Source: an uncultured Gammaproteobacteria bacterium (lineage in GTDB: Bacteria > Patescibacteriota > Patescibacteriia > UBA1558 > 2-01-FULL-52-15). Taken from it: 64,000 nucleotides of DNA. Where the stretch lies: positions 504,802 to 568,801 of the forward strand of contig CAYOCJ010000001.1 of assembly GCA_964402565.1 (NCBI GenBank), read 5' to 3'. Shown here piece by piece: positions 1,300-62,373 of this stretch. Numbering within the stretch: the first letter of the stretch is position 1; each line of letters begins with the position of its first letter. A program made the translations under genes and the position numbers. The notes under the pieces are model-generated. The model did no database searches. It was given only the letters and a program-made list of their open reading frames with translations, and was not told the origin of the DNA.

Positions 1300-4200
1300 A
1301 TGTTAAAAAAGCTACATACCAAAAGGGGGGTACGTACCGGCTTTTACGTCTTCGTCATTGCCGGTTTAGTTTTAAATAATTTCAGTAGCATCAGGATCCC
1401 AGTGACCTATGCTGCTGACAGCGGATTCTTCGCAGCAAACGCGACCGTTGCAAGCAATAGCGTCACCAGTCCTGACAATGGCTGGGTATCTGATGATAAT
1501 CGCGCAACGTTCAATGCAACAGGCGATACCGCTGATTATAGCTTCGGAAACCTTGGTTTGCCGGCAAATGCCCAGATCGATGGCATTGAAGTTACGATCG
1601 AAGGCCAGAGATCGAGTAGCCGCAATTTGAGCGCAGCGCTATGGAATGCTTCGAACAGTAACCCAGACGCTTATAGCTCAAGCTCAACCGCAACGTTGAA
1701 CACGAATAGCGACACCGTCGTCACGCTCGGCGGACCAACATCAAAGTGGGGCAAGAACTGGGATTCAAATGATTTTGGTGCATCGTTCAAGATCCGAGTA
1801 GCTGGCGCCTCAGGCAGCGGAAACGCCCTGTTGGATCAGCTTCGAGTCAAAGTCTACTACAGCACCTTACCTCAGAGTGCTGAAAATCCATCACTTCCAA
1901 ACTCATGTGGCTTGGATGTGTCTTTAGTTTTGGACAACTCTGCATCCATCGACAACACTGAACTCGGTCAGATGAAGACTGCTTTCAAAGGTTTCGTTGA
2001 TGCATTAGCACCAGGAACTCCAACAGATTTCTCAGTCACGAAGTTCAATAGCAATGGCAGCACTGTATTGGACCCATTCTCTGCAAACGCAACAACGGTG
2101 AAGAATGCGATCGACTCTGTAACCACCTCAAGCGGTCACACAAACTGGGAAGATGGTTTGAACGTTTCTTTCGGGATCTCAGACCCGCGACCTTCTAATC
2201 CGAACGTCATGGTCTTTGCTTCTGACGGAGACCCAAACCGCAAGATCGGTTCAGTCGCTGACATTTCAGCTTTCGACGCAATGACAGCTGCTATCAATAA
2301 GGCAAATACGATCAAAGGCGCTGGCACTCGAATAATTACTCTCGGTGTCGGTAACGCTATCAATACTGCGAACTTGGTCGATATTTCAAGCGCTGACGCA
2401 AACTTCACTACAGCAAACTTCAGCGATCTGAATACAACTTTACAGAACCTCGCTCAGGAGCTTTGTGGCGGAACCATCACGGTTACCAAGAGAATTGGCA
2501 CCCCAGACAGTTCTGTTGCTGCGGGTGAAGGCTGGACATTCAATATCGGCGGAAACCCGAACAAAAACACTGACACAAATGGACAGACTCCATCAGTAAA
2601 TTTGACGAACGGAACCTACGTTGTAACCGAAACCGGCGGCCCTTCAGGCTATGCGTTCAATAGCGCAACATGCGAAGGCGCGACCAATGATGGTTCGTCG
2701 ATCGCAAATGGCGTTGAAGGAATCCAGGTTGGAACGAATGATATTGTCTCATGCACATTCTATAACACTGCAAATGCAGGAACACTAACCGTCATTAAGA
2801 ACGTTGTTGGCGGTGATGCGCAGGCATCTGATTTCAACCTAACGGTAGATAATGGTAACCCGGGATCATTCCCAGGCAGTTCAATAGGCACTGCGGTTAC
2901 AGTTGCTGCTGGAGCATCATACAATGTTGGTGAAGATCCAGTATCAAACTACTCGCCAAGCTATTCTGAAGGCTGTTCAGGTGTTATGCAGCCAGGTGGC
3001 CAGGTTGAGTGCACTGTTACCAATACATACACACCGCCTCAGGAGACAACCGGAACAGTAACCGTGATCAAAAAAGTCACTAAGGATAATGGCGGCACCG
3101 CTGAAGTGGGCGACTTTACCCTTATGGTTGGCGATACATCTGTTGTATCCGGTGAAGCTAATGCATTTTTCCCTGGGCCATACGCGGTCAGCGAAACCGG
3201 CGGCCCTTCAGGCTATGCGGGTTCATTCAGCGGAGACTGCGATGAAAATGGAAATATAAACGTTGTTGCAGGCGAGTCATATGTCTGCACCATCACCAAT
3301 GATGATATTCAACCGAAACTGACCGTTCAAAAGATCGTTGTTGGCGGTAACCTCGATGCAAATAACGTCCCCTTATTCGTGAATGGAGACCCAGTCACCA
3401 ATAATGTTACGAACGGATTTGATGCAGGGACTTACACTGTCAGTGAAACGCCGCAACCAAACTATATTCCAAGTTTCAGTGAGAATTGTCCAAATGGACA
3501 GATCTCATTGGTAGTAGGACAGGAAGCTACCTGTACCATTACGAACACCTACAATCCGCCGGTCGAACAGGACACGACCAATATCGTCGCAACTAAGATC
3601 GTCTGTCAGGATGAAGCAGACTTGCCGAACTGGGGAGAGACCGGTCAGCCGGATATCACCTCTTCGACAGCTGCAGATTTCTTAGCAACACACCCTGGTT
3701 GCCACTTGGCTCCAGACTGGACCTTCCAATACGGCTTTGCTGATAAAGAAGGCCAGGAAGGTGTCGACAAGCTGCCCGGAGATATCATCGGCGACGCAGA
3801 TGGTACGGACTCTACTGGTATGTGCAATGCACCATACTGCGGAGCTAATACCAATACCGGAACCGGCTACAGCGACTGGAAATCATTCGGACCGACAAAC
3901 GGTTCAGGTGAAGCATCAGTTTCGATCAGCGATCTTGAAGGAGCATCTTCTCTCTGGGTTCGTGAATCATTGAAGCCCGGCTATATCCCGTTCACCTATC
4001 CGCCACAGGGTCCGGATGAGAACAATGTAACTGCTGAGATCTATTGCCATAAGGATACGAACCATTACGACAACTATGACAATATTGAAGATGTCTCAGC
4101 TGGAAATACCTACTACTGTGTAGCATTCAATGCACCAAAGCCATTGACTATCGTTGCAAATAAGATCGTTTGTGAAAATGAATCAGACTTGCCGAACTGG

Positions 4201-5091
4201 GGAGAGACCGGTCAGCCGGATATCACCTCAAGTACCGCGACTGAATTCCTGGACACACATCCAAATTGCCACTTACAACCTGATTGGAAGTTCCAGTGGG
4301 GATATGGTGACAAGGATGGCCAAGAAGGCGTCGATAAGCTTCCAGGCGACTTCGTAGGTGAGGCTACTGCTGCCGGTGATTCAACCGGCATGTGCAGCAC
4401 CCCATACTGCGGTGCGAATACAGAGACAGGCCTTGGCTACTCAAACTGGAAGACTTTTGGCCCTACCGATGTAAATGGTACGACCTCAGTGAATATTTCA
4501 GACCTGCAGGGTGCTTCATTGATCTGGGTACGTGAAGTCTTGAAAGATGGGTATATTCCATTCACCTATCCGCCAGAAGCACCGGATGCTGACAATGTGT
4601 CGGCGGAGATTTACTGCAGCATGGATACTAACCACTACGATAATTACGACAATATCGCAAATCCAGAGCTTGGAAATACATACTACTGCGTAGCGTTCAA
4701 TGCTCCAAAGCCTGGTACTGATGTCTGTAACAATATCGAAGGAATTCAGTCAATTATCCCTGATGGTATGGTCTCGAACGGCGAAGGCGGTTGTGAGACC
4801 CCGCAGGATCCAGGCGGTGGTAGTTCGATCACAACCTCAGGCGGTGGTGGTGGAGGAGGAGGCGGTGGCGGAGGAATTCCGAATTTCCCGAACCAGCCAA
4901 CTGGCTCTGATAATCCAAAAGTAGAAGGTTTCTCTACAACCGTTCCTGATAACCCGACTGTTCTCGGATTCGAAGTATTGCCGAATACAGGCGGTGACCT
5001 TACCGGCTACTATGCGGCTGTCAGCACACTCTTTACGCTTATTCTCAGCACGCTCTACGTAAGCTATCGTAGACGCTCAGCGAAAGCATAA
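1300..5091 (+). CDS. Sortase-anchored surface adhesin: signal peptide, vWA domain (MIDAS DxSxS), several Ig-like/CnaB-like beta-sandwich repeats, two tandem ~189-aa Cys-rich repeats, poly-Gly linker, LPNTG sorting signal
   Basis: N-terminal hydrophobic signal (FYVFVIAGLVL). DVSLVLDNSASID vWA MIDAS motif. Repeated T-V-x-K-x-V / VGG..DA..FNL segments typical of isopeptide/CnaB-type domains. C-terminus LPNTGG followed by a hydrophobic TM segment and an RRRSAKA tail, the classic cell-wall sorting signal. A sortase gene lies immediately downstream. Confidence 0.85.
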   Translation: MLKKLHTKRGVRTGFYVFVIAGLVLNNFSSIRIPVTYAADSGFFAANATVASNSVTSPDNGWVSDDNRATFNATGDTADYSFGNLGLPANAQIDGIEVTIEGQRSSSRNLSAALWNASNSNPDAYSSSSTATLNTNSDTVVTLGGPTSKWGKNWDSNDFGASFKIRVAGASGSGNALLDQLRVKVYYSTLPQSAENPSLPNSCGLDVSLVLDNSASIDNTELGQMKTAFKGFVDALAPGTPTDFSVTKFNSNGSTVLDPFSANATTVKNAIDSVTTSSGHTNWEDGLNVSFGISDPRPSNPNVMVFASDGDPNRKIGSVADISAFDAMTAAINKANTIKGAGTRIITLGVGNAINTANLVDISSADANFTTANFSDLNTTLQNLAQELCGGTITVTKRIGTPDSSVAAGEGWTFNIGGNPNKNTDTNGQTPSVNLTNGTYVVTETGGPSGYAFNSATCEGATNDGSSIANGVEGIQVGTNDIVSCTFYNTANAGTLTVIKNVVGGDAQASDFNLTVDNGNPGSFPGSSIGTAVTVAAGASYNVGEDPVSNYSPSYSEGCSGVMQPGGQVECTVTNTYTPPQETTGTVTVIKKVTKDNGGTAEVGDFTLMVGDTSVVSGEANAFFPGPYAVSETGGPSGYAGSFSGDCDENGNINVVAGESYVCTITNDDIQPKLTVQKIVVGGNLDANNVPLFVNGDPVTNNVTNGFDAGTYTVSETPQPNYIPSFSENCPNGQISLVVGQEATCTITNTYNPPVEQDTTNIVATKIVCQDEADLPNWGETGQPDITSSTAADFLATHPGCHLAPDWTFQYGFADKEGQEGVDKLPGDIIGDADGTDSTGMCNAPYCGANTNTGTGYSDWKSFGPTNGSGEASVSISDLEGASSLWVRESLKPGYIPFTYPPQGPDENNVTAEIYCHKDTNHYDNYDNIEDVSAGNTYYCVAFNAPKPLTIVANKIVCENESDLPNWGETGQPDITSSTATEFLDTHPNCHLQPDWKFQWGYGDKDGQEGVDKLPGDFVGEATAAGDSTGMCSTPYCGANTETGLGYSNWKTFGPTDVNGTTSVNISDLQGASLIWVREVLKDGYIPFTYPPEAPDADNVSAEIYCSMDTNHYDNYDNIANPELGNTYYCVAFNAPKPGTDVCNNIEGIQSIIPDGMVSNGEGGCETPQDPGGGSSITTSGGGGGGGGGGGGIPNFPNQPTGSDNPKVEGFSTTVPDNPTVLGFEVLPNTGGDLTGYYAAVSTLFTLILSTLYVSYRRRSAKA
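3587..4713 (+). repeat. Intragenic tandem duplication (2 x ~567 bp) encoding a 6-Cys domain (KIVC..DLPNWGETGQPDITSST...CHL.PDW...PYCGANT...NHYDNYDNI...YYCVAFNAPKP)
   Basis: Two ~189-aa protein repeats with >75% identity. They include a 44-nt perfectly identical DNA stretch (3619-3662 and 4185-4228). Confidence 0.85.
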
Positions 5092-6979: not shown

Positions 6980-8061
6980 AATACGGCGAATCATCTCACG
7001 CGGTAGGCATTGATATCTCTGATGGCAGCCTTGAACTCGCAAATATTCAGGAACGTCGGGATGGCGTTCCTGTTTTGATTGATTATGCGCGAGTTACGCT
7101 GCCGGAGCATGTGATCGTGCATGGGCGCATACAGGACGAACCCTTGCTGGACGAAGCTCTCGAGGAGCTACTCGACCAGACAAGCCTCGAGCTGAGGAAT
7201 GTGTCGGTCTGTACAGCTTTGCCTGATTCTCAGATCATTACGAAAATCTTACCCTTGCCGAAAAGTCCGGAAATCCCTTCTTTTGATTCGCTGCATCAAA
7301 GCGCACAATTGCTCTATAAGAGCCTGAATTTTAGGATTGAGGATCCAGTACTGCAATGGACATTCCATGAGCTCCCTGACACGTCAGGCGAATTGACTCT
7401 TTTTGCAACAGCGGCCGATGCGGTGCATCAGTGGGAACGTTTTTTCAAAAAAGAAGGCATGGATCTCCTGAGCCTTGAAATGGAATCTCTTGCCCTCCAG
7501 CGGGCCTTTATTCAAAAGATCCCTCATAATGAATCGATTGCGCTCATTGATTTCGGTTTTAGAATGACGATCATTTCAATAGTTGATGCCAGCGGCCTTC
7601 GGTATTCGCATACCATAGATCAGGGCGGTTTTGATCTCACCACTGCAATTGCGCGGACCACCTCGGCCAAGCTCGACACTGCAGAGCGTTTGAAAATTTC
7701 AGTAGGTCTAACGAATCGGGCTGACAAACCGCTGCACGCGCTTATCACAAAAAATATCGACGACCTATTGCATCTCATTCATGCGTCCTTACAGGACTTC
7801 GGCGGTGCCGTTGACTCGATCATTATTACCGGAGGAGGAGCGAGGCTTCGGGGCATCCGTGCTGAAACCGAGCATGTGCTCAAAATTCCCACCAAGCGTG
7901 GGATTCCTTGGTTTTCACAAGTCCACCAGGTAAAAGGCCAGCTCAACTCCACACAAATTGAGACCACAAAAATGCCTTTGTACGCCGGCGCTTTAGGTCT
8001 TGCATTGCGCGGCATGAATCGATATACTCTTGCGAAAGGAATTAATTTTATCGATGAGTAA
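6976..8061 (+). CDS. PilM-like actin-fold ATPase (type IV pilus assembly protein PilM family)
   Basis: N-terminal VGIDISDGSLELA (the GIDIGS-type phosphate-1 loop of the PilM/FtsA fold). Central LTLFATAAD...LSLEMESLALQRAF. C-terminal IIITGGGARLRGI, matching the PilM LTGGGA motif. Confidence 0.65.
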   Translation: MKYGESSHAVGIDISDGSLELANIQERRDGVPVLIDYARVTLPEHVIVHGRIQDEPLLDEALEELLDQTSLELRNVSVCTALPDSQIITKILPLPKSPEIPSFDSLHQSAQLLYKSLNFRIEDPVLQWTFHELPDTSGELTLFATAADAVHQWERFFKKEGMDLLSLEMESLALQRAFIQKIPHNESIALIDFGFRMTIISIVDASGLRYSHTIDQGGFDLTTAIARTTSAKLDTAERLKISVGLTNRADKPLHALITKNIDDLLHLIHASLQDFGGAVDSIIITGGGARLRGIRAETEHVLKIPTKRGIPWFSQVHQVKGQLNSTQIETTKMPLYAGALGLALRGMNRYTLAKGINFIDE

Positions 8062-17479: not shown

Positions 17480-17770
17480 TTACTTGGAAGAGTTGGGATG
17501 AAGCATGAAAGAGAATTGTTGTGACCTGCGAGCGGGAGGCACTTGAACCGCAGGCTCGATCTTCTTGACCCTCAGAGGCGTTCTTCGAGCGACGATTTGC
17601 TCGAAAATGCCGCAGCGCTCTTCGCCGCGAACCACGTAGCCTATCCAGGCGCCGTATAGCTTGCGAGCGGGGTAGGCTGCCAGGTCTTTCTTTCGGATGA
17701 CTCCTTTCCCGTACTTTTTCATAGCACGGTAGTGCAAGATGTCGACCAGCTCGTCTTTGTACATGCACAT
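17480..17770 (-). CDS. Hypothetical small basic protein (unsupported by homology)
   Basis: 96-aa ORF in a 420-bp gap, with a GGAG 9 nt upstream of its ATG. No recognisable motif. It could be non-coding. Confidence 0.25.
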   Translation of the reverse strand: MCMYKDELVDILHYRAMKKYGKGVIRKKDLAAYPARKLYGAWIGYVVRGEERCGIFEQIVARRTPLRVKKIEPAVQVPPARRSQQFSFMLHPNSSK

Positions 17771-24426: not shown

Positions 24427-27042
24427 TTAGCAACCAATACTCGTACAGCCTGTTTGCGTACAAGTAATACTACATGATGGCTGCACTGGCCCATTCGCAA
24501 ATGTATTGACGCCAAACACATTGTATGAGAAAGACTTTGCTTTTGTATCCCCTGCGCAAAAGGTATAGTCAAAACGATATGGTAATGCTGGCCACGTCGC
24601 CTGAGTCGCAGGTTCATCGATAGTACAAATCTTCTTACCTACGGCAGGTAATTCCTTTCCTGAACAATTAGTGCCTTGATCAGCTTGAATAGATCCGCCT
24701 TTGAGCTGGCATACTGTCAGTGCTGAAACAAGTGCGTTTGCCGTTGATTTTGCTGATGCTACACTCGTGTTATAGAGCTGATTACCAACTCCTGCGCTAG
24801 TCTCTGCTCCTAAATTCCGGGGCGGATACCAAACATCATAATAATCTAATTTACCCGGACCTGCGGGCTCATAACCTTTTGTCACTTCATCGCCATCGGA
24901 GTAGCCATCGCCATCTGAATCTTTTTTATTTGGATCCGAACCATAGTATGCTTCGACAATATCCGGCAGCCCATCAGCATCAGTATCAACGGCTAATGCC
25001 ACCTTTGCCTCCACTGAGATCTCAGTAGCATTTGCCGTGTTGACGCCATTCACATAATTAACAGCCTCATTCACGCCAAATCCGTTCGACATCCCCATGA
25101 ATCCTCCGCCTCCATTGCTTGCCTGTTCTTTTACGCGATGCGGAATTTGCATGGTATATTTCAATGTATACGCATCAGGATTGGTCAGCTTCTCGTATAT
25201 AAACTGCTGTCCGGTGAAACCATCCTGCGGAACAGTTTTCAAGAATGGCGTTTCAGCCAGCTGCTTCTCATACTCCGGATCATTGAAAGAGTTAAAACTA
25301 TCAGGAAAGTCGATCTGAACACCTGTCGCGTTGGTATTGGTAACGGTCTTTTTCGGCGCTTTCGTGAGCTTGCCTCGCGGCGTCGTCAACTCATCGAGTG
25401 AAGCAGGATAAGCCCCGGTATAGGATTTAAACTCAGACAAGGCGCTTCGAACCAGATCTACATTGGTTTGTTGACGCTGTGCACGGTACATTTCTTTTGT
25501 CATGCCGGTAAGCGCTAGTTGCGCATCTTCGAACGATATAGCACCAGCCGGCTCCTCTACCACGACCGGAACATTGATATTGCTTAAGCTCAATGTGAGA
25601 TCAAGTCCGATCTGTTTATCCTTCAGTTTCGTAGCTTTCGCGCCCGGTACGATCCTGAAGCGGTATGACATCTGGACCGGATAACCGGTGTTCTTATCGA
25701 TCAGTATCTTTAACTTGGTATTATTTTTTATAAAGGTTAAGTACTTGGTAAAGGTATCCGTTTTCATGTACCGAAGTGATGTTTCGTCAAGCTTTACCAT
25801 GGCATCAGCTCCGAACTTATCCTGTAATTCCTTGCTCAAATGCTCATACCAGGCAGCGACTTTTGTCTCGTCATACGTAACATTGTAGGCATAGGCCTGG
25901 GTCGTCCCTAAGCTTTCATCAGGCAATGACATGTCAACTTGCAGCACTTTGTCTTCATCCATAGTTTTCAGGATCGTCTGGAACTGTTCCAGCGCCTGAG
26001 TATTCTTCTGCTGCTTATCTCCGATAAACGTACCGATATATGACAAGTCTGAATATCCTACCAAATCCTCCGGCACTGCCTTGATCCATTTATTTTTAAT
26101 GGCGGTCAGATCAATGAATAGAGACGGAAATTTGGAAACCATGCCATAGTAGGTATCGCCTTTTTTCCGCAGCTCAAACTCGGCAGCGACATTGAAGTCT
26201 CCAAACGAAGCGTCCCCTCCAAGATGAAAATTGGCGTCTGCTTTTTTTGCCTGATCTTTCGTCGACGTGCCGCCTGCTCTGAGGTTAAAACTGAAATCAG
26301 ATGGCGCATAATCGAGGTACTCATCAGCGCCCTGCTCAAGCGTCGAAACCCAGGATGGCCTATGCGGTTCACCATTAAAGTAAAAATATGATTCGCTTTT
26401 CTTAGATAAGGTCACTTTTTTGCCATCGACCTGTGTTACTTCTTTTTTGCTATAGCCGGCGACTGCTTTTACGGCATCATCAGTCTCAAACGTGACTGAA
26501 AGCGCATAATCATCATTGCCAGCGTTTAATGCATAGGTAAAATCGCTCAGGTTCTTGGCTGTGAGTGCCGGCACATCAGAAAGCTGATTTGGATATGCGG
26601 TATTGCTTTGACGGTATACCGATAATGCGGACTGGATTGACTGCGCATCAGACACCCTATTCGCATCTCGCTCATACATTTGCGTGTCATTCACAAATTC
26701 AGGAAAGGTAAGAGGCTCGAACGCAGTCGCTCCTGCTTCCCTCGGCTCAGCCTGCAGGCCGAACTTAGCTTCGTACGTTGCTGAGTTTATCGACTGAATT
26801 TTAGAAAAAAAGTTTGCAAAAGCACTTTGCTTCGAAGCAGGACCCATACCCTGGAATGGCCAGATCTTAAAATAAAAAGCGGCTCCTGCATAGGAACCAA
26901 TCACGAGGACGCCGAGTAAGACGATAATAACCATCCATGGCGTTTTTTTAGCTGCCGGCTGCAATGGCTGTGACGACTCAGGCATGGTCGTAACCGGCAT
27001 AGGCGCCTGCTGCGGCGGCTGTTGATATGGTTGTTGGTCCAT
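24427..27042 (-). CDS. Large membrane-anchored surface protein: Pro/Gln-rich N-terminus, single TM, TSP3-like Ca-binding aspartate repeats, Cys-rich C-terminal domain
   Basis: TM segment WMVIIVLLGVLVIGSYAGAAFYF. DTDADGLPD...DSDGDGYSDGDE resembles type-3 thrombospondin Ca-binding loops. Ten Cys lie in the last 100 aa. Confidence 0.6.
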   Translation of the reverse strand: MDQQPYQQPPQQAPMPVTTMPESSQPLQPAAKKTPWMVIIVLLGVLVIGSYAGAAFYFKIWPFQGMGPASKQSAFANFFSKIQSINSATYEAKFGLQAEPREAGATAFEPLTFPEFVNDTQMYERDANRVSDAQSIQSALSVYRQSNTAYPNQLSDVPALTAKNLSDFTYALNAGNDDYALSVTFETDDAVKAVAGYSKKEVTQVDGKKVTLSKKSESYFYFNGEPHRPSWVSTLEQGADEYLDYAPSDFSFNLRAGGTSTKDQAKKADANFHLGGDASFGDFNVAAEFELRKKGDTYYGMVSKFPSLFIDLTAIKNKWIKAVPEDLVGYSDLSYIGTFIGDKQQKNTQALEQFQTILKTMDEDKVLQVDMSLPDESLGTTQAYAYNVTYDETKVAAWYEHLSKELQDKFGADAMVKLDETSLRYMKTDTFTKYLTFIKNNTKLKILIDKNTGYPVQMSYRFRIVPGAKATKLKDKQIGLDLTLSLSNINVPVVVEEPAGAISFEDAQLALTGMTKEMYRAQRQQTNVDLVRSALSEFKSYTGAYPASLDELTTPRGKLTKAPKKTVTNTNATGVQIDFPDSFNSFNDPEYEKQLAETPFLKTVPQDGFTGQQFIYEKLTNPDAYTLKYTMQIPHRVKEQASNGGGGFMGMSNGFGVNEAVNYVNGVNTANATEISVEAKVALAVDTDADGLPDIVEAYYGSDPNKKDSDGDGYSDGDEVTKGYEPAGPGKLDYYDVWYPPRNLGAETSAGVGNQLYNTSVASAKSTANALVSALTVCQLKGGSIQADQGTNCSGKELPAVGKKICTIDEPATQATWPALPYRFDYTFCAGDTKAKSFSYNVFGVNTFANGPVQPSCSITCTQTGCTSIGC

Positions 27043-35033: not shown

Positions 35034-35188
35034 AAAAAAACGTCGGTTACCCTCGTCTTACAATTCTACCTAATTAAGGCCTAAAAATCAATGATTTTTG
35101 ATCTTGACGCCGCAAAATAGTTTGCTAGGCTGATTGAAAGTTTCGTTCATTCCAATACATCCGTTATTCATCACCAAAGGAGGTGTAC

Positions 35189-35563
35189 ATGAGCAGCTTG
35201 AGGATGGTCCGAGACCTGCGTTTCTGGGGTGTTCTAGTGGTTCTGTTGATCACCGGACTCATCGGCTATGGACTGGGCCAAGGCAAAGGATCAGCAGGCG
35301 ATGTGGCCCACACTTTATTGGGCCTCGTCTGCTCTGGCGTCGGAGCCTTTCTCCTCAATGCGGTAATCATGCCATCCTTTGATCGTTCGAACGGAAATGA
35401 ATCAGGCATGATTGCCGGCATCTTACTGGTTCTCTTTATTCTCGCCGGACTCGTGGTCGGAACGCTGTGGGCGCTCTTCTTCGGACCAAGCGTCGCGCTT
35501 TTCGTCGTGTCGATCGGCATTCAGCTTTTCGGCATAGTCGTGGCCTGCTTCACAGTCAACTAA
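35189..35563 (+). CDS. Small integral membrane protein (3-4 TM helices), hypothetical
   Basis: AAAGGAGG SD lies 5 nt upstream of the ATG at 35189. The sequence is highly hydrophobic. Confidence 0.5.
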   Translation: MSSLRMVRDLRFWGVLVVLLITGLIGYGLGQGKGSAGDVAHTLLGLVCSGVGAFLLNAVIMPSFDRSNGNESGMIAGILLVLFILAGLVVGTLWALFFGPSVALFVVSIGIQLFGIVVACFTVN

Positions 35564-50794: not shown

Positions 50795-52549
50795 TTATTC
50801 GAGTACAGCCTTAATACGCCTGACGCCAGCAGAACTAGCTTCTTCCTTTTGAATCTTAAGCTTTCCCATATCTTTCGTGTTCTGCACATGCGGACCACCG
50901 CAAATTTCTTTACTAAAGTCGCCCACAAAATAGACTTTGACTTTGTCTCCATACTTGTGCTCAAAAACACCTGTTGCGCCAATCTTCTTCGCATCAGCGA
51001 CTGACATCTCTTCGAAATGAACATCATGTCCCTTGGCGATCTCGGTATTGACCATTTCCTCTATTTTGTGAATCTCATATTCTTCAAGCTTGCGAGGAAA
51101 TGTAAAATCAAAACGCAAACGCTCAGCCGTGATATTACTGCCACGCTGGTTAATATCCTCGCGTCCCAAGATGCGCTTCATAGCCTCGAGCATGAGATGG
51201 TTTGCTGTATGATACTTCACTGTTTGATCACTATGATCAGCAAGTCCACCTTTGAATTTCCCGGCTGAGGCGGTGCGGCTTTTATCTTGATGGTCTTTCA
51301 TCAATGCAGTAAAGCTAGCAACATCGACTGATATATTCTTTTCATGTGCAAGCTCCTGCACCATTTCCAGTGGAAAACCATAACTTGAAAATAAGGTAAA
51401 TGCATCTTCACCAGAAATAGTTCCAGCTTTTGCATATTTCTCGAAAGTTCTGGTTCCTTGATCTATTGTCTTTGAAAACTTTTCCTGCTCCTTATGCAGC
51501 TCCTCTACTACTACATCATGATTACGTCCAAGTTCTGGATAGTCATTGTGATATTCTCGTGTAACGATCTGAACCAATGAATCAAATTCTTTGGAATCCA
51601 AATCAATCATCTTCGCGTAGCGTACCATACGGCGAATCAACCTGCGCAGGACATAACCCTGGTCAACATTCGAAGGCCGGATAGCTCGTTCATCAGCCAG
51701 CATGAAAACAGTAGCACGAATATGATCAACGATGATCCTAACAGCTCGATCGTTTCCTTGTGCCTTTTTCGCTGTTCGATTCACATGCGTAATGAGCGGC
51801 TCAACCGTATCAATGCTATAGACCGAGTCCTGACCATCAAGCACTGCAACGGTGCGCTCCAAGCCCATACCAGTATCAACATTTTTCTGCTTCAATGGCG
51901 TATAGGAGCCATCTTTCTGTTTTTCATAGGCCATAAATACATTATTCCAAATCTCGATCCAACGGCTATCTTTCGGATCATATATCTTGGGCGCAGGCTC
52001 ATTAGCGCTCCAGTAAAATATCTCTGTGTCAGGTCCGCAAGGACCAGAATCTCCTACTGGTCCCCAGAAATTATCATCGAGATACGCGATCCGATCTTTT
52101 GAAACGCCATGTAGTTGCCAAAGATGCGCTGTTTCTTCATCTCGTGGAATACCTTCTTTTTCATTGCCGTCGAAAACAGTAAATGCCAATTTATCCAGAG
52201 AAATACCAAGATATTTTTTATCTGTAAGGAATTCAAAGCTCCATTCAACGGCATCTGTTTTGAAATAGTCGCCTAAAGACCAATTGCCGAGCATTTCGAA
52301 AAAAGTCAGATGCGTACCATCGCCTACTTCATCGATATCCCCGGTACGGATACACTTCTGTGCATTGGCGAGCCTGAGACCCTGCGGATGCTTCTCTCCT
52401 TTGAGAAATGGGGTTAAGGGGTGCATACCAGCTGTGGTAAAGAGCACGGTCGGATCATTCTCTGGAATCAAAGAAGCCGAAGGCACGATCTCGTGGCCTT
52501 TGGAACGGAAAAAATTGAAGTAGAGGTTTTTGAGCTGACGGCTAGTCAT
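50795..52549 (-). CDS. alaS: Alanine--tRNA ligase, short form (catalytic + tRNA-binding + editing domains; lacks the C-terminal C-Ala domain)
   Basis: N-terminal FNFFRSKGHEIVPSASLIPENDPTVLFTTAGM. Editing-domain HTANHL...CGGPHV Zn motif. The gene is 584 aa, versus about 870 aa for typical AlaS. The start was trimmed to MTSRQLK at 52549. Confidence 0.85.
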   Translation of the reverse strand: MTSRQLKNLYFNFFRSKGHEIVPSASLIPENDPTVLFTTAGMHPLTPFLKGEKHPQGLRLANAQKCIRTGDIDEVGDGTHLTFFEMLGNWSLGDYFKTDAVEWSFEFLTDKKYLGISLDKLAFTVFDGNEKEGIPRDEETAHLWQLHGVSKDRIAYLDDNFWGPVGDSGPCGPDTEIFYWSANEPAPKIYDPKDSRWIEIWNNVFMAYEKQKDGSYTPLKQKNVDTGMGLERTVAVLDGQDSVYSIDTVEPLITHVNRTAKKAQGNDRAVRIIVDHIRATVFMLADERAIRPSNVDQGYVLRRLIRRMVRYAKMIDLDSKEFDSLVQIVTREYHNDYPELGRNHDVVVEELHKEQEKFSKTIDQGTRTFEKYAKAGTISGEDAFTLFSSYGFPLEMVQELAHEKNISVDVASFTALMKDHQDKSRTASAGKFKGGLADHSDQTVKYHTANHLMLEAMKRILGREDINQRGSNITAERLRFDFTFPRKLEEYEIHKIEEMVNTEIAKGHDVHFEEMSVADAKKIGATGVFEHKYGDKVKVYFVGDFSKEICGGPHVQNTKDMGKLKIQKEEASSAGVRRIKAVLE

Positions 52550-52740
52550 GGGAATTAGTATATTGTAAAAGTACAAGGAAAACAAGATTTTTTATATTCA
52601 GGAGCTTTTACTACTATAAACTATTGACAAAATATATTATTTATGCTATTTTACTCGGTCTTTTGCATCACAGTCAGAAGGCTTAGTTCTTCGAAATCAC
52701 AATTTACGGCGACTATGGTCGCTCTAAGAAGGGAGAAAAT

Positions 52741-53994
52741 GTGCGCTTTCAAAAACGTCTTTTTCTGTTCATCGCGGCCGCTCTGTTGAGCGCAACTCAA
52801 CTCAGCGCCCAAGCACCGCCAGAAATGCTCAGTCTTTCCGCGCCCTACGGATACAACGGTGAGACGGTGGCGATCGACGGGCACTATCTCTTCGGTCCCT
52901 ACCAGACGACGGTGACATTCAACGGTTCTCCTGCGCTGATCATCTTCCAGAGGACCTACGGATCAGATTCACCAATCCTCCAGGAGATCGTCATGCTGGT
53001 TCCGGATGATGCCTGCTCGGGCCCAGTGTGCGTACGGACGCCGTACGGAACGACTTGCTGGCCAGATTCATTCACAGTCTGGCCGTATTCCGAAACGGAT
53101 GATGACTTCATCGGTGACCACTGCGACAACTGTCCGAGTGTAAACAACCCCGACCAGTCGGACAGCGACGGTGACGGGGTCGGCGACGCTTGTGACAATT
53201 GCCCGACCATCTACAATCCGAGTCAATCGGATTTCAACTCCGACGGCCAGGGAGACCACTGCGACAACGACGACGGCACCGTCTATCTCTCGTTGCCCGA
53301 AAAAAGTACGATCGAGTGGGACGGCGACTCAGGAGCCCATCCCTGGAACATCTACCGAGGTGATCTAGCGGAGCTCCGAGCGAGCGGAACCTATACGCAG
53401 CCTAGCGGCACGAATCCTGGAGCTGGACGAGAGTGCAGCCTGATGCAAGTTCAAACCACAGACTTCGACGTTATCAACCCCGGTGAAGTGTGGTTCTATC
53501 TCGTGAATGGTACCTACCCGAACGGGATCGAATACGCTCTTGGCGCGGATTCGAGTGGAACCATGCGACCGAACGACAATCCGTGCGGTGTTCAAACGCC
53601 TAACACATTTACGGCAAAATACTGGAACACACCAATGTACCAGTACGAGCCGCCGATGCCGACGTGGGCACCGGACATCGTGACACAGGTTCCCACGGTC
53701 GACTTCAACTGGGGGCAAGGCTCTCCAGATCCTGCCATCACCAACGACCACTTCATGGCGGAATACACGAAGTACCAATTCTTTGTAGGCGGCCCCTATC
53801 AGTTCAGGGCAAAGGTCGATGACGGAGTTCGAGTCTTCGTCGATGGCTACAGGGTCATCGATGAATGGCGCGATCAGGGTGAGCCGACCTTCTATGGCAA
53901 CATTACCCTCAACGAAGGACTGCATGCCATCAAAATCCTCTACTACGAGGATGGCGGCGGTGCTGTCATCCAGGTAAACTGGCAGCGTCAGTAG
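52741..53994 (+). CDS. Secreted protein with thrombospondin type-3 Ca-binding repeats and a C-terminal PA14 domain; GTG start; GC-rich relative to neighbours
   Basis: Signal peptide [19 protein letters not shown]. Three DxDxDGxxDxCDNCP TSP3 repeats. PA14-like [26 protein letters not shown]...[22 protein letters not shown]. Confidence 0.7.
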
Positions 53995-54067
53995 CAATCA
54001 TCCGCGGGGGACGATCACTATCAATTCGGAATCAACCGAAGCGATACGGATCTCCCCCGCTTTTCTT

Positions 54068-55183
54068 TTACGTAATTACCCCACTCCCGACAAGTTCCTT
54101 ACCATTATAAGCAGCGAAAGTTTGGCCTGGTGAAACTGCTCTTTGCGGGCGAGCGAAGCGAGCCCGCACAATTACTTTGCCCTCTGACTTCACGACGGGA
54201 TTTTTCGACTTCGTCCCGCTTCGCGGGACTTCGCTCAAAATGACTGCCTGATCCTGTTGCCGATAGCGTATCTTTGCTTTGCACTTCAATGGAAAGCAAA
54301 GCGGCTTGGCAACCAAATGCCAGTCTGAAACAGTAATTTCTTTTTTGAAAAGCTGTAATTGATGTTCAGTGCCAACAACTAAGCGATTCTTTTTCAGGTC
54401 TTTATCTATGACATAGAGCGCCGGTCCTCCGCCAATATGAATTCCTTTCCTTTGGCCGATAGTGTAGTAATACACTCCCTGATGCTGCCCGAGTACTTTC
54501 CCATTCGTATCAACGATATCTCCTTTCTTTGGCTTGATCCATTCTTTCAAGAAATCGTCCATATCAATATTTCCGACAAAACATACGCCCTGGCTGTCAG
54601 GCCTAGTAGCATTTGGTAATTTAATTCTCTTCGCAAGAGTCCGTACCTCAGGCTTTGTTATCTCCGCCAATGGAAAAACTACATGAGATAATTGCTCCTG
54701 TCCCAGTCCTGCCAGAAAATACGATTGATCCTTGTTCTTGTCCTTGCCTTTCAATAGATGAAAGATGCCGTCTTTTGTCTTTTTCACTCCTGCATAATGC
54801 CCTGTAGCGATTGATTCGTACCCCTCTTTTTTTGCACGATCCAAAAACACACCGAACTTGATTTGCGTATTACACATGATGTCGGGATTTGGTGTTCTGC
54901 CGCTCTTATACTCATAGACCATATAGTCAAAAACCTGTTTGTGATACTCTCGTTCAAAATTCCAAGTCTCGAAAGGAATTTTCAAAAACCTTGCTACTCT
55001 ACGAGCTTCTCTCATGTCCTCTTTCCAGGGGCAATCGACACCTTTCATTGGCAATGAGAAATTCTTCATGAATACGGCATGTACTTCATAGCCTTGTTTT
55101 TTCAGCAGATAGGCAGAAACAGCAGAGTCTACGCCGCCCGATAATCCGATCAAAATGTTCTTCTTACTTTTCATAAGATGCAC
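54068..55183 (-). CDS. mnmA: tRNA-specific 2-thiouridylase
   Basis: PP-loop ILIGLSGGVDSAVSAY. The Cys pair and C-terminal barrel are typical of MnmA. Confidence 0.88.
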   Translation of the reverse strand: MHLMKSKKNILIGLSGGVDSAVSAYLLKKQGYEVHAVFMKNFSLPMKGVDCPWKEDMREARRVARFLKIPFETWNFEREYHKQVFDYMVYEYKSGRTPNPDIMCNTQIKFGVFLDRAKKEGYESIATGHYAGVKKTKDGIFHLLKGKDKNKDQSYFLAGLGQEQLSHVVFPLAEITKPEVRTLAKRIKLPNATRPDSQGVCFVGNIDMDDFLKEWIKPKKGDIVDTNGKVLGQHQGVYYYTIGQRKGIHIGGGPALYVIDKDLKKNRLVVGTEHQLQLFKKEITVSDWHLVAKPLCFPLKCKAKIRYRQQDQAVILSEVPRSGTKSKNPVVKSEGKVIVRARFARPQRAVSPGQTFAAYNGKELVGSGVIT

Positions 55184-57951: not shown

Positions 57952-59547
57952 CTAGAGTAGCGATATCCCGATAATCTCATCGGGTTTTTTTAACCCCATT
58001 ATTTTTAAAATGGTCGCAGTTATATCCGGCAAAATACCGGCAGATGAAGCCATACTCAAATCGTGTCCACGAATACCATAGGAGACATTTTTACCCTGCC
58101 ATGGTTTACCAATAATGATAAAGGGCACCGGATTATTTGAATGCATCTTATCAACCGCGCCAGTTTGTAAATTAAAGAGGCTTTCGGCATTACCGTGATC
58201 TGCAGTAATCAAAACCGCACCATCATAGGCAAGGGCAGTATCGACGATCTGACCTATGCACTCATCCAGCACCTGAACGGCTTCGATCGTTGCCTGCAAA
58301 TTTCCGGTGTGGCCTACCATGTCTGCATTGGCAAAGTTAACGACGATAAAGTCATATTTCGACTCGCGGATCTCGGATATCAACCGAGCCGTGATTTCCC
58401 GGGCGCTCATTGCTGGTTTTTGATCATAGGATGCAGATTTTACTGATGGTATCAAGATATGCTCCTCGCCGGGATATTTCTTCTCCTGGCCTCCGTTAAA
58501 AAAATAAGTCACATGCGCATATTTTTCTGTTTCTGCGATATGCAGCTGGGCTAAGCCTGCGTCGCTTATGACTTTAGCCAGAGGCATCGTAACTGCTTCC
58601 GGAGGAAAGGCGACAGGCACCGGCAAATCTTTTTCATACTCGGTCATTGCAAGAAAATGCAGATCCTGCATATACACACGTTCAAATTTATTAAAACCCG
58701 GAAGTACAAAAGCTTTCGTTAACTGACGTGCCCGGTCGGCGCGAAAGTTAAAGAAGACAACACCATCCCCATTTGAGATCGTTGCCACCGGTTTTCCATG
58801 ATCAGTGATGACCGTCGGCACTAATTGCTCGTCATAGACGCCCTTATCGTATGACTCCTGAATGGCCTTCTGCGGATCGTCAGACATGACATCAGCAACA
58901 CCCTGTACCATAGCGCGATACGCTTTCTCAGTGCGATCCCACCTATTATCCCTGTCCATGGCATAGAAACGGCCGGCAAGCGTAGCGATTTTTCCAATGC
59001 CTAATTTTTTCAACACATCCTGCAGCTTACTGACAAAGGTCAATCCGCTATTGAGCGGCGTATCTCTGCCGTCGAGAAAACAATGTATAAATACCTTCTC
59101 CATTTTTTGCTGTTCGGCCAATTCTAACAGCGCATACAGGTGCTCATTGAAGCTATGCACGCCTCCCGAGCTGACCAAACCTATGATATGCAATGCCGTG
59201 CCGTTCTTTTTGACCGTCTTGTACAGCTCGAGAAATTCTTTATTCTGAAAAAAAGTTCCGTCTGCGATCGATTTTGAAATACGCGGCAGGCTCTGATACA
59301 GCACTCTGCCTGATCCAAGGCTCAAGTGGCCCACCTCCGAATTGCCTACCTCGCCCCACGACAAGCCTACTGCTTCCCCTGCGGCCTGTATGGACATGGC
59401 CGGATAATTCGTCAAATACGAATCCATGTTCGGCGTCTTGGCAAGACTGATGGCATTAGCCCGGGATGGCGGCGCAATGCCCCACCCGTCGAGTACGATC
59501 AGTACCACAGGGCGCGGTCGGACAAATGGTGCATTCGAGGGTGGCAT
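57952..59547 (-). CDS. gpmI: 2,3-bisphosphoglycerate-independent phosphoglycerate mutase (copy a)
   Basis: VLIVLDGWGI, GNSEVGHLSLGSGR (catalytic Ser) and ITADHGN. Confidence 0.9.
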   Translation of the reverse strand: MPPSNAPFVRPRPVVLIVLDGWGIAPPSRANAISLAKTPNMDSYLTNYPAMSIQAAGEAVGLSWGEVGNSEVGHLSLGSGRVLYQSLPRISKSIADGTFFQNKEFLELYKTVKKNGTALHIIGLVSSGGVHSFNEHLYALLELAEQQKMEKVFIHCFLDGRDTPLNSGLTFVSKLQDVLKKLGIGKIATLAGRFYAMDRDNRWDRTEKAYRAMVQGVADVMSDDPQKAIQESYDKGVYDEQLVPTVITDHGKPVATISNGDGVVFFNFRADRARQLTKAFVLPGFNKFERVYMQDLHFLAMTEYEKDLPVPVAFPPEAVTMPLAKVISDAGLAQLHIAETEKYAHVTYFFNGGQEKKYPGEEHILIPSVKSASYDQKPAMSAREITARLISEIRESKYDFIVVNFANADMVGHTGNLQATIEAVQVLDECIGQIVDTALAYDGAVLITADHGNAESLFNLQTGAVDKMHSNNPVPFIIIGKPWQGKNVSYGIRGHDLSMASSAGILPDITATILKIMGLKKPDEIIGISLL

Positions 59548-59549
59548 AC

Positions 59550-61106
59550 CTACTTTCGTATGAGACTCGACCCTGTCATGAGGTCTGGTTTATCAACGTG
59601 CAATAGCTCAAGCAAGGTTGGCGCAATATCAGCGAGGATGCCTTTCTTGCGAAGCTGCAGCTTCGGCCCTTTTTTGATGATAATGCAGGGCACGGGATTT
59701 TTTGAGTGTTCAGTGTCTATCTCACCGGTTGTTCTATTTACCAGTTCCTCTGCATTGCCGTGATCTGCAGTAATGCATATCATACCGTTCTTTGCGAGAA
59801 CCGCTGCAACCATTTTACCAAGACAATGGTCTACGTACTCTGCTGCTTCGATGGTAGCCGGTACGCTTCCCGTATGCGCCAGCATGTCTGCATTTGAAAT
59901 ATTAACCCCGATAAAATCATACCTGTCGCTACTTATTGCTTTCAAAAATTGGCTGGTGATAGACGGCAGGCCCATTTTCGGAGTTTTTTTGTATGAAAGC
60001 ACGTCCGGTGATGGGACCATGATGCGCTTTTCGCCTGCGACCGGCCGGTCATAACCGCCATTAAAGAAATAGGTCATGTGCGCGTATTTCTCGCTCTCAG
60101 CGATATACAATTGCCGGAAATTGCTCAGCACGACCGGCAAGGTGTCCACGATGTCGCGGCTCGGATATGCAGTGAGAATCGTTTCCAGATCCGGGCCAAA
60201 ATCAGTCATGGCGACGAAAAAAACATTTTTTAATACTTTCAAGCGCTTAAATGCATGTGCATTGACCTTTTCAAAATCAAATTGCGTAAACGGCTTTGAG
60301 AGCTGCCGAGCGCGATCAGACCGTAAATTGAAAAAAACAACACTGTCCTTGTCGCTTATCTTCCCCACCGGCTTGCCATTTGAGGTGATCACGGTCGGCA
60401 GAATGAACTCATCGGTCTCGCCGCGATTATACGCATGCAGAACAGCATCCTCGGCTGAACTCGCTGTCTGGGGCGCTACGCCGCGAACCATTGCATCGTA
60501 AGCTAATTGCGTATGCTTCCAGTCCTTTTTCCTGTCCATCGCATATGCTCTGCCGATAATAGAAGCTATGGTGCATTGTGCGTTGAACAAATTCTGATAC
60601 TTGCGAAGAAGCCGGATCGCAGAATACCGGGAGCTGTCCCGTCCATCCGTAAACAAATGCAGATAAATATTCTTAACCTTTTGGTAGCGGAAAAATGTAA
60701 TAAGCGCTATCAGATGATCAGGCTGCGAATGTGCGCTTTGTCCGTTCGACAAGAGCCCCATCAAATGCACATTCGATTTATACTTGCGGGCATGTTTTGC
60801 TGCCTGCAAAAAAGCAGGATTCTTGAAAAAAGTTCCGTCTGAGATCGAGCGCGAGATCATCACGCTGTCTTGTTCGACAATGCGTCCTGCTCCGATATTC
60901 ATATGGCCTGCTTCGGAATTTCCATCCTGGCCAAGCGGCAATCCCACATGGACCGATGAAGCCAATAATTCTGTGTATGCGTACTTACGCTTAAACTCAT
61001 CCATATGGGGCGTTTTTGCCTGATAGAGCGCATTGCTCTCATCATGGGGGCCGATCCCCCAGCCATCAAGAATAAATAGCACAAATGGTTTGCTAGTTTT
61101 TGCCAT
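59550..61106 (-). CDS. gpmI: 2,3-bisphosphoglycerate-independent phosphoglycerate mutase paralogue (copy b, ~35-40% identity to copy a)
   Basis: FVLFILDGWGIGP, GNSEAGHMNIGAGR and ITADHGNAE. The start was trimmed to MAKTSKPF at 61106. Confidence 0.85.
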   Translation of the reverse strand: MAKTSKPFVLFILDGWGIGPHDESNALYQAKTPHMDEFKRKYAYTELLASSVHVGLPLGQDGNSEAGHMNIGAGRIVEQDSVMISRSISDGTFFKNPAFLQAAKHARKYKSNVHLMGLLSNGQSAHSQPDHLIALITFFRYQKVKNIYLHLFTDGRDSSRYSAIRLLRKYQNLFNAQCTIASIIGRAYAMDRKKDWKHTQLAYDAMVRGVAPQTASSAEDAVLHAYNRGETDEFILPTVITSNGKPVGKISDKDSVVFFNLRSDRARQLSKPFTQFDFEKVNAHAFKRLKVLKNVFFVAMTDFGPDLETILTAYPSRDIVDTLPVVLSNFRQLYIAESEKYAHMTYFFNGGYDRPVAGEKRIMVPSPDVLSYKKTPKMGLPSITSQFLKAISSDRYDFIGVNISNADMLAHTGSVPATIEAAEYVDHCLGKMVAAVLAKNGMICITADHGNAEELVNRTTGEIDTEHSKNPVPCIIIKKGPKLQLRKKGILADIAPTLLELLHVDKPDLMTGSSLIRK

Positions 61107-62373
61107 GTAATTCCCGTTCAATTTCCAGCAATCGATTATACTTTGCAATGCGTTCGCCGCGGGCAGTAGACCCTGTTTTAATAAAATCCGCATTAACACC
61201 TACGGCAAGGTCTGCAATAAATGTGTCCGGGGTCTCACCGCTTCGATGCGAAATAGCAGTTGCATAGTTGTGCTGCTGTGCAAGCTGAATGCAAGATAGC
61301 GTCTCCGTTAATGTCCCGATCTGATTCAACTTGATCAAAATACTATTTGCGGCCCCCTGGTCGATGCCTTTTTGCAGCCTTTTAACATTGGTCACAAAAA
61401 GATCATCGCCGATCAGCTTTAGTTTTTCATGATGCGCCTTGGATCGTGCGGTATACTGTTGCCATGCCCGCCAGTCTTCCTCGGCAAAAGGATCTTCAAT
61501 TGCGCTAATAGGATACTCGCGAATAAGCCCGTCATAGTATTCGGCCAGTTCAGATGAATCCATTTCTGTATGCTCAAGCTGTAACTTATATTTTTCTATT
61601 TCATGATCATAGAAAACCGATGATCCTGCGTCGATGCCAAGGGCAATCTCGCTTCCCGGCGTATAGTTGGCTTGCTCAATGGCATGCAGCAGCAGATCAA
61701 AGACGCGACGATGATTAGGAAAATTCGGCGCATATCCGCCTTCATTGCCCAGATCGGTATCCATATGTTCTGAAGTTAATACTGATCCTAGTGCATGAAA
61801 AATTTCACTGCCCTGCTCTAAGCGTTCAGCAAACGCTGTTGCATGATGCGGAATGATCCAGAATTCCTGGATATTGAGATTCGTCGCAGCATGCATACCT
61901 CCGTTGATGACATTGATAAGCGGAGTCGGCAAGTGATAGTCCTGATCGTCGCTTTCGCTCAGCGATCTAATATACCTATAGAGCGGCACGCCGAATGCTT
62001 GCGCAGCAGCACGAGCACAAGCGAGCGAAACGCCTAAAATCGCATTTGCTCCTAAGCGGCTTTTATTTTCAGTGCCATCAAGACCTATCATCAATTGATC
62101 CAGCCTCTGTTGATCATTCACATACATACCTGAAAGATGGGCAGCGATTTCGTTATTTACATTTGCAACAGCTTTCAAAACCCCTTTACCTCCGTATCGC
62201 TTCTTGTCGCCGTCGCGCAATTCAAATGCTTCAAAGGTGCCAGTAGACGCGCCCGACGGCACTGAAGCAGTTGCCTGCATGCCATTTTCCAAATGGACCG
62301 TTACTTCAAGCGTAGGATCGCCGCGGGAGTCCAAGATTTCCAATGCCTCGATTTTTTTTATTTTTTTTGACAT
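61093..62373 (-). CDS. eno: Enolase (copy 2; SHRSGETPD variant of the SHRSGETED motif)
   Basis: ILDSRGDPTLEVTV, SHRSGETPDTFIADLAVG and KYNRLLEIE. The start was trimmed to MSKKIKKIEALEI at 62373, 3 nt after the pgk stop. Confidence 0.9.
   Translation of the reverse strand: MSKKIKKIEALEILDSRGDPTLEVTVHLENGMQATASVPSGASTGTFEAFELRDGDKKRYGGKGVLKAVANVNNEIAAHLSGMYVNDQQRLDQLMIGLDGTENKSRLGANAILGVSLACARAAAQAFGVPLYRYIRSLSESDDQDYHLPTPLINVINGGMHAATNLNIQEFWIIPHHATAFAERLEQGSEIFHALGSVLTSEHMDTDLGNEGGYAPNFPNHRRVFDLLLHAIEQANYTPGSEIALGIDAGSSVFYDHEIEKYKLQLEHTEMDSSELAEYYDGLIREYPISAIEDPFAEEDWRAWQQYTARSKAHHEKLKLIGDDLFVTNVKRLQKGIDQGAANSILIKLNQIGTLTETLSCIQLAQQHNYATAISHRSGETPDTFIADLAVGVNADFIKTGSTARGERIAKYNRLLEIERELHGKN

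Follow-up and report, generated by a model that had tools for sequence, protein, structure and literature searches.

Among PA14 domains of solved structure, those of RsgI3 and RsgI4, biomass sensors of Clostridium thermocellum and C. clariflavum (PDB 6qe7 and 6qdi), lie closest to the one encoded by the gene considered here, which occupies positions 52741–53994 on the + strand of a 64,000-nt stretch of a Patescibacteria contig (CAYOCJ010000001.1; hereafter the window) and specifies a 417-residue protein combining thrombospondin type 3 (TSP3) repeats with a C-terminal PA14 domain. These two sensors, whose ligands are pectin and xylan, bind polysaccharide in a Ca2+-dependent manner: in the PA14A module of RsgI3, the ligand-contacting Ca2+ is held by D86-D87 of strand β5 (the “DcisD” pair) and Q130 of calcium-binding loop 2; modules without the DcisD pair bind neither calcium nor polysaccharide; and xylan binding by RsgI4 is abolished by ethylenediaminetetraacetic acid (PMC6852018). 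Our analysis makes it likely, though well short of certain, that the gene in the window encodes a foreign, secreted, Ca2+-binding and probably glycan-binding TSP3/PA14 protein that was acquired as one unit.

The PA14 β-barrel comprises residues 286–417 (53596–53991, + strand). The Pfam PA14 model (PF07691) matches residues 315–416 with 51.8 bits, above its cut-off of 24, a score that bears out the assignment made in an earlier note on this DNA; a HMMER comparison matches the domain to RsgI3 PA14 (PDB 6qe7) with an E value of 2.4e-21; and the AlphaFold2 model reaches a predicted local distance difference test score (pLDDT) of about 90–97 over residues 310–417. The top Foldseek matches are RsgI PA14, MpPA14, the PA14 inserts of GH31 enzymes, and Epa and Flo structures, and by sequence and fold together the nearest PA14 domains are those of RsgI3/RsgI4, followed by the RTX-adhesin PA14, the GH31 inserts and fungal Epa/Flo. 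Judged from the model, the domain has a genuine PA14 fold. HMMER aligns D360-D361 with the DcisD pair D86-D87 of RsgI3, and E403 (of YYEDGGG, i.e. E403-D404-GGG) with Q130 of calcium-binding loop 2; the sequence signature of a DcisD-type lectin, adjacent Asp-Asp on β5 plus a polar ligand in calcium-binding loop 2, is therefore present in the alignment with RsgI3. The protein shares with RsgI3 and RsgI4 the DFxWGxGSP...DDGVRxxVDG...YYE pattern as well as the DcisD pair and a polar or acidic ligand in loop 2. Because of the DcisD pair, the E403/Q130 correspondence and the RsgI3 relatives, Ca2+-mediated binding of a glycan or polysaccharide is the most likely activity of this PA14 domain, and one it probably possesses. 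By analogy, the protein as a whole would work most like Ca2+-dependent PA14 lectin modules. It differs from RsgI3 and RsgI4 in design: they are anti-sigma factors anchored in the membrane, in which PA14 occurs as a tandem dyad and TSP3 repeats are lacking, whereas the protein described here is soluble and secreted and has a single PA14 domain.

Three further groups of proteins resemble parts of the chain. In the RTX-adhesin PA14 proteins (Marinomonas MpIBP, Marinobacter Lap) and the fungal Flo/Epa adhesins, a DcisD PA14 barrel ends a Ca2+-stiffened chain, and the match is at the level of the fold; the 417-residue protein, however, is 10 to 30 times smaller, lacks RTX repeats, a type I secretion system signal, an Ig-like repeat tower, a glycosylphosphatidylinositol anchor and a Ser/Thr stalk, and shows weak sequence similarity to them (E 5e-9 to 3e-3). 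With the thrombospondins and COMP it shares the DxDxDGxxDxCDNCP Ca2+ repeats and their paired cysteines (E 6e-30 to PDB 1yo8 and 3fby), but it has three repeats only, one of them truncated, and it lacks the EGF domains and the L-lectin-like TSP_C domain: Pfam gave no EGF or TSP_C match, and the alignments with 1yo8 and 3fby do not extend beyond the repeats. A group of bacterial proteins with TSP3 repeats and a C-terminal fibronectin type III (FN3)-like domain (e.g. P0005, P0020, P0024, P0034 and P0048) is 37–49% identical to residues 119–285 and keeps the conserved W, WNxYRG, YTQ, Cys and RPNxxPC positions; these proteins end at the FN3-like domain, whereas in the protein studied here and in its homologue P0003 a PA14 domain follows it.

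Several family assignments were tried and rejected. MtsC (NF047638) scores 64.6 bits against a cut-off of 350, over residues 114–178 only, and the protein has no MYXO-CTERM-type C-terminal tag; TraB (NF033763) scores 7.6 bits against a cut-off of 700, with the TSP3 repeats alone matched. A giant adhesin of the RTX/LapA type does not agree with a length of 417 residues, an N-terminal Sec signal, the lack of an RTX Pfam match and a similarity limited to PA14. The features that define thrombospondins, RsgI anti-sigma factors and Flo/Epa adhesins are likewise missing. The protein is, in short, a true PA14-domain and TSP3-repeat protein that belongs to none of these families.

A foreign origin of the gene is suggested by its base composition, which the earlier note had described as markedly GC-richer than the flanks. 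Measured against the 58 other open reading frames (ORFs) of at least 90 aa in the window, the gene has a GC content of 0.561 compared to 0.473±0.024 (z 3.7), the highest of all 59, and a third-position GC content (GC3) of 0.665 compared to 0.502±0.048 (z 3.4); in 1-kb bins over the 64 kb, 53001–54000 stands alone at 0.561, and the next highest bin reaches 0.505. We considered whether the gene could nonetheless be native, its composition arising from a D/G/P/T-rich protein or from translational selection in a highly expressed secreted protein. The amino-acid content alone does raise the expected GC from 0.473 to 0.503; when the protein is recoded with the synonymous codon frequencies of the window, however, the expected GC is 0.503±0.008, and the observed 0.561 exceeds it by z 7.1 with the protein sequence held fixed. 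About one-third of the GC excess thus comes from the protein and about two-thirds from synonymous codon choice.

In many bacteria, translational selection shows itself in an excess of C over T at codons that end in a pyrimidine, and this excess is strong in the gene: the pooled C share at such codons is 74%, compared to 39±8% in host genes (z 4.3), with AAC at 78% vs. 31%, TAC at 71% vs. 30%, ATC at 95% vs. 46%, and TTC at 79% vs. 42%. The ribosomal-protein and rpoA genes that lie a few kb away, however, have a C share of 34–52%, so translational selection in this genome is not the source of the bias. (We used the pyrimidine-ending codon test in place of a per-codon log-likelihood under host codon usage, which gave no discrimination, z −0.7, because host codon usage is nearly flat.) All five segments of the gene are evenly GC-rich (0.54–0.585), the upstream spacer is host-like (GC 0.33) and the downstream spacer with its terminator has a GC content of 0.52; on account of the even segments and the host-like upstream spacer, the gene looks like one unadapted foreign unit. 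A native origin could also draw on the lack of any mobility signature and on the presence in the host of further large surface proteins, including one that carries bacterial TSP3 repeats, but this last protein has a host-like GC content of 0.465 and no detectable similarity to the 417-residue protein, and relatives lack the gene at the corresponding position, as described below. We therefore regard a native origin as unlikely.

The genomic context also argues for acquisition. The gene lies between alaS (50795–52585, − strand; a short alanyl-tRNA synthetase (AlaRS) by the Pfam families tRNA-synt_2c and tRNA_SAD), from which it diverges, and mnmA (54068–55183, − strand; Pfam tRNA_Me_trans), with which it converges; in the order rpsI, rplM, rplQ, rpoA, rpsD, rpsK, rpsM, infA, alaS, TSP3/PA14 gene, mnmA, mltG it is the sole + strand gene in a − strand housekeeping run. 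The GTG codon at which the ORF list begins the 417-residue frame, which ends in TAG, is the earliest start possible past an in-frame stop, and a Shine-Dalgarno sequence, AGGGAG (52730–52735, + strand), can be read 5 nt before it. A consensus scan places a putative σ70-like promoter, TTGACA-17 nt-TATTTT with a TG extension, at 52624–52652 (+ strand), about 89 nt upstream of the GTG and matching the consensus at 10 of 12 positions. The GTG start and the promoter-like site, both claimed in the earlier note, are thus confirmed. At the other end, fold energies identify an intrinsic terminator (54004–54069, + strand) that consists of a 57-nt GC-rich hairpin (54004–54060) and the tract TTTTCTTTT (54061–54069); the hairpin has a folding energy of −34 kcal/mol (z −6.07), matched by none of 200 shuffled sequences, and was missed by a simple scanner because its loop is long. 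The T-tract shares 2 nt with the stop codon of the convergent mnmA, so that the foreign unit abuts the host gene with zero spare sequence.

For comparison we kept 80 loci from species-representative genomes, with AlaRS proteins 48–56% identical to that of the window; the AlaRS matches include many metagenome-assembled genomes of Patescibacteria (Uhrbacteria, Staskawiczbacteria and unclassified Patescibacteria) as well as evidently mislabelled bins, so that the host is probably a divergent member of the Patescibacteria. Nine of the kept loci have mnmA and alaS on one strand, with mnmA immediately upstream, and in none of these nine syntenic loci, whose AlaRS proteins are only about 50% identical, does a TSP3 or PA14 gene occupy the slot between them. 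The contents of the gap differ: it is empty in one locus (L023); four loci (L010, L021, L025 and L034, at ~7100–8000 in each) have a conserved membrane protein of about 250 aa, 45–54% identical among themselves and without a homologue in the window; and others (e.g. L015 and L077) have unrelated same-strand genes. The mnmA–alaS gap is therefore a variable slot. Taken together, the synonymous-codon bias, the lone orientation, the gene's own promoter and terminator, and its absence from the slot in nine loci make horizontal acquisition, as proposed in the earlier note, well supported.

N-terminal to the PA14 domain the protein comprises four parts, two of which (an N-terminal β domain and an FN3-like domain) did not figure in the earlier note. 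The chain opens with a predicted Sec-type signal peptide (52741–52809, + strand), which starts MRFQKR, ends TQLSA|QA, is modelled as a helix at residues 4–16, and has sequence features that place cleavage around residues 23–25 and include no lipobox Cys. The mature chain is very acidic (55 D/E vs. 16 K/R), which fits a Ca2+-loaded extracellular protein. From these features and from the repeats described below, we infer that the protein is exported by the predicted Sec signal and that it binds Ca2+.

The signal peptide is followed by an orphan β-rich domain with three cysteines (residues 24–118; 52810–53094, + strand), delineated from Pfam and the AlphaFold2 model. Its Pfam match, obtained with the isolated domain, is to IPT/TIG (PF01833), at E 0.0022 and 18.4 bits, under the cut-off of 20.9 and over part of the model only; AlphaFold2 confidence in this region is low (block-mean pLDDT 29–68). 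No homologue of residues 24–118 appeared among the top hits or in a dedicated word-indexed search, a negative that is weak evidence for so short a query since the same search also missed the identical protein P0001.

Residues 119–179 (53095–53277, + strand) form three TSP3 Ca2+-binding repeats, recognized by Pfam, PDB and NCBIfam comparisons and modelled with a pLDDT of 86–91. Structures of thrombospondin-2 and COMP match them at the E value given above, and NCBIfam MtsC matches them locally at E 7e-18. The Pfam TSP_3 model (PF02412), with which the earlier note proposed to check the repeats, gives a divided answer: the isolated repeat region scores 31.8 bits, spread over three stretches, whereas the whole protein, at 22.7 bits, falls just short of the cut-off of 25. 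The earlier description of three DxDxDGxxDxCDNCP repeats is likewise correct as to the three TSP3 stretches but not as to the motif, which is complete in repeat 2 alone (residues 141–155); repeat 1 is degenerate, and repeat 3 is truncated (...CDNDD).

Between the repeats and the PA14 domain lies an FN3-like domain (residues 180–285; 53278–53595, + strand), a seven-strand β-sandwich superposable on FN3 domains, with a conserved W, WNxYRG, YTQ, LVxG and RPNxxPC and a cysteine pair, C232/C282. No Pfam family covers residues 180–285, and this module is an undescribed domain family.

We propose that these parts would work in concert as follows. An acidic chain of extracellular modules would be exported through the Sec pathway; its TSP3 repeats, by analogy with thrombospondin and COMP, would wrap Ca2+ and be stapled by disulfides into a rigid connector; the FN3-like β-sandwich would act as a spacer between the connector and PA14; and PA14, at the tip of this Ca2+-stiffened stalk, may bind a glycan or polysaccharide through Ca2+. 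The target could be a glycan of a partner cell or of the surrounding matrix, the producing cell being a probable episymbiotic member of the Patescibacteria. The whole gene, probably with its terminator, would have arrived as one unit in the mnmA–alaS slot by horizontal transfer, and would still be without host codon usage. This account starts from direct observations, namely the reading frame, the domains it encodes, its unusual composition, its surroundings in the genome and how rarely such an architecture occurs; glycan binding, the biological target and the direction of transfer are what we infer from them.

Relatives with the same architecture are very rare. A word-indexed protein search returned 3045 matches, nearly all of which cover the TSP3 repeats only or PA14 only. 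An exhaustive HMMER search with residues 173–417 against 1.84 billion representatives returned 14,846 proteins; among the best 150 of these, only the protein itself and P0003 span both the FN3-like and PA14 domains, and the rest are tandem-PA14 proteins. A scan of metagenome contigs for further relatives yielded two weak PA14 fragments only. Apart from P0001, the identical protein on record, P0003 is the only other protein found with the TSP3, FN3-like and PA14 arrangement: 434 aa long and derived from metagenome runs SRR308137xx, it is 46% identical over 278 aa in one continuous TSP3/FN3-like/PA14 match. It differs from the 417-residue protein in having a signal peptide with a lipobox (LSAC, Cys19), two TSP3 repeats, no N-terminal β domain and a second PA14 domain. 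Given its lipobox, P0003 is probably surface-tethered, which suggests that the family acts at the cell surface. The P0003 gene (961–2265 of locus L003), seen on four short contigs, has a GC content of 0.566 against flanks of 0.45–0.53, and may also be foreign at its site. An enolase fragment next to it is 63–79% identical to sequences from many phyla and 61% identical to the enolase of the window, values that say little about the host of P0003.

A bolder version of this account would make the protein a host-attachment or host-range lectin, captured by episymbiotic Patescibacteria from another phylum, possibly that of the partner lineage, and part of a very rare two-member TSP3/FN3-like/PA14 fusion family with an undescribed FN3-like module; as a complete statement we find this unlikely. 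The few labelled matches are to Chloroflexota (Anaerolineae, Ardenticatenaceae) for PA14, to Acidobacteriota for the TSP3 plus FN3-like module, and to Myxococcota for the TSP3 repeats alone.

It is also conceivable that the gene was acquired but that its PA14 domain, instead of binding a glycan, recognizes a protein or serves in self-recognition. In myxobacteria, TraA recognizes kin through a PA14-like domain and works alongside TraB, a protein with TSP3 repeats; PA14 also occurs in the anthrax protective antigen; and one paper on TraA (PMC6372800) reportedly mentions both PA14 and thrombospondin type 3. The local NCBIfam matches of the repeat region to MtsC and TraB, which are myxobacterial cohesion and exchange proteins, agree with such a role, but these matches involve TSP3 only and fall far under their cut-offs, as stated above. 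Moreover, every one of the nearest PA14 structures belongs to a sugar binder that depends on Ca2+, and the protein retains the DcisD pair. Recognition of a protein by this PA14 domain thus appears improbable to us.

A number of observations weigh against the account that we favour, in which a secreted, Ca2+-binding and probably glycan-binding protein was acquired as one unit. With respect to sugar binding, a further Ca2+ site of the RsgI PA14 domains, the CBL1b site, is only partly conserved, as far as the alignment indicates: the counterpart of D61, in the second calcium site of RsgI3, is D336, but the Thr next to it is replaced by His. Some PA14 domains, moreover, bind proteins or serve self-recognition and do not bind sugars. 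With respect to acquisition, the empty-site evidence is only indicative because even the closest loci with this synteny come from distant relatives (AlaRS identity no higher than 56%), and no donor lineage could be named among the labelled matches because the labels are sparse and point to different phyla. We found no flanking repeats of the gene and no integrase; there were no tRNA or Rfam matches anywhere in the window; a tblastn search of phage records gave no match; and plasmid records gave PA14-domain matches only, mostly from the Bacillus cereus group. With respect to attachment, we looked in the sequence for an LPXTG motif, a transmembrane segment, a lipobox and a C-terminal sorting signal, and found none, so that retention of the protein on the cell, and hence adhesion, is unsupported.

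The earlier note had called the protein an adhesin or carbohydrate-binding protein; the second half of this description is backed by the PA14 fold, D360-D361 and the Ca2+-dependent relatives, whereas “adhesin” is unproven for want of any anchor to the cell. If it is an adhesin, it would need to be retained non-covalently, perhaps via the orphan N-terminal domain. We also looked for a diversity-generating retroelement and found no template repeat or paralogue of the gene in the window.

The remaining alternative, that the insert is an artefact of assembly or binning in which a foreign sequence was joined into a Patescibacteria contig, could explain the abrupt change in composition at both ends of the gene but is highly improbable, because the window is 100% identical, with the same junctions, to independently assembled Logan contigs from runs SRR12313479 and SRR12313480 over 21.3 kb and 12.9 kb. 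In addition, an NCBI contig of 633 kb carries the same protein, the T-tract of the terminator reaches into the stop codon of mnmA, and the spacer upstream of the gene is host-like in AT content.

The gene's composition also accounts for a long ORF on the opposite strand. As the earlier note had observed, a shadow ORF of 210 aa runs at 53365–53997 (− strand), codon-aligned and antisense to the real gene. In this frame, antisense stops arise solely opposite TTA, CTA or TCA sense codons, which number 12 per 1000 in the gene compared to 33.5 per 1000 in host genes; the final one in the gene is a CTA at 53365, and since none follows it, the antisense frame stays open. We therefore reject the antisense ORF as a gene and regard its openness as a by-product of gene composition through the avoidance of TTA, CTA and TCA codons.

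In itself, the TSP3/PA14 gene is a real but fairly ordinary gene acquisition, with plausible and unremarkable biology, and it does not overturn current understanding: its modules are known except for the orphan N-terminal domain and the FN3-like domain, which lacks a Pfam family, and their combination is rare. Patescibacteria, with their tiny genomes, rely on other cells, and little is understood of how they recognize and hold their partners. As a secreted, lectin-like and probably Ca2+-dependent protein of probably recent import, the gene product is a concrete candidate for recognition of a partner or of the matrix, and its position would show that the tightly packed housekeeping core of Patescibacteria genomes can take in a single foreign gene. 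In addition, bacterial TSP3 repeats are always followed by the FN3-like module, which could become a described Pfam family.

Other features of the window deserve mention. The host's TSP3-repeat protein is encoded at 24427–27042 (− strand); its 871 aa begin with a pseudopilin-like (T2SSG) segment and include bacterial TSP3 repeats (PF18884), and since its GC content is host-like, the host already has a TSP3-type surface protein of its own. A 1263-aa protein with VWA and SpaA/SpaA_2 prealbumin-fold domains (1300–5091, + strand) has a host-like composition and looks like a pilus or adhesin surface protein. Two small ORFs with high GC3 and no Pfam match lie on the strand opposite to their neighbours, one of 96 aa at 17480–17770 (− strand; GC3 0.66) and one of 126 aa, membrane-protein-like, at 35183–35563 (+ strand; GC3 0.65); they may be additional foreign genes of small size, or else spurious. 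Finally, tandem paralogues of cofactor-independent phosphoglycerate mutase (Metalloenzyme and iPGM_N domains) occupy 57952–59547 and 59550–61199 (− strand), next to enolase and PGK.

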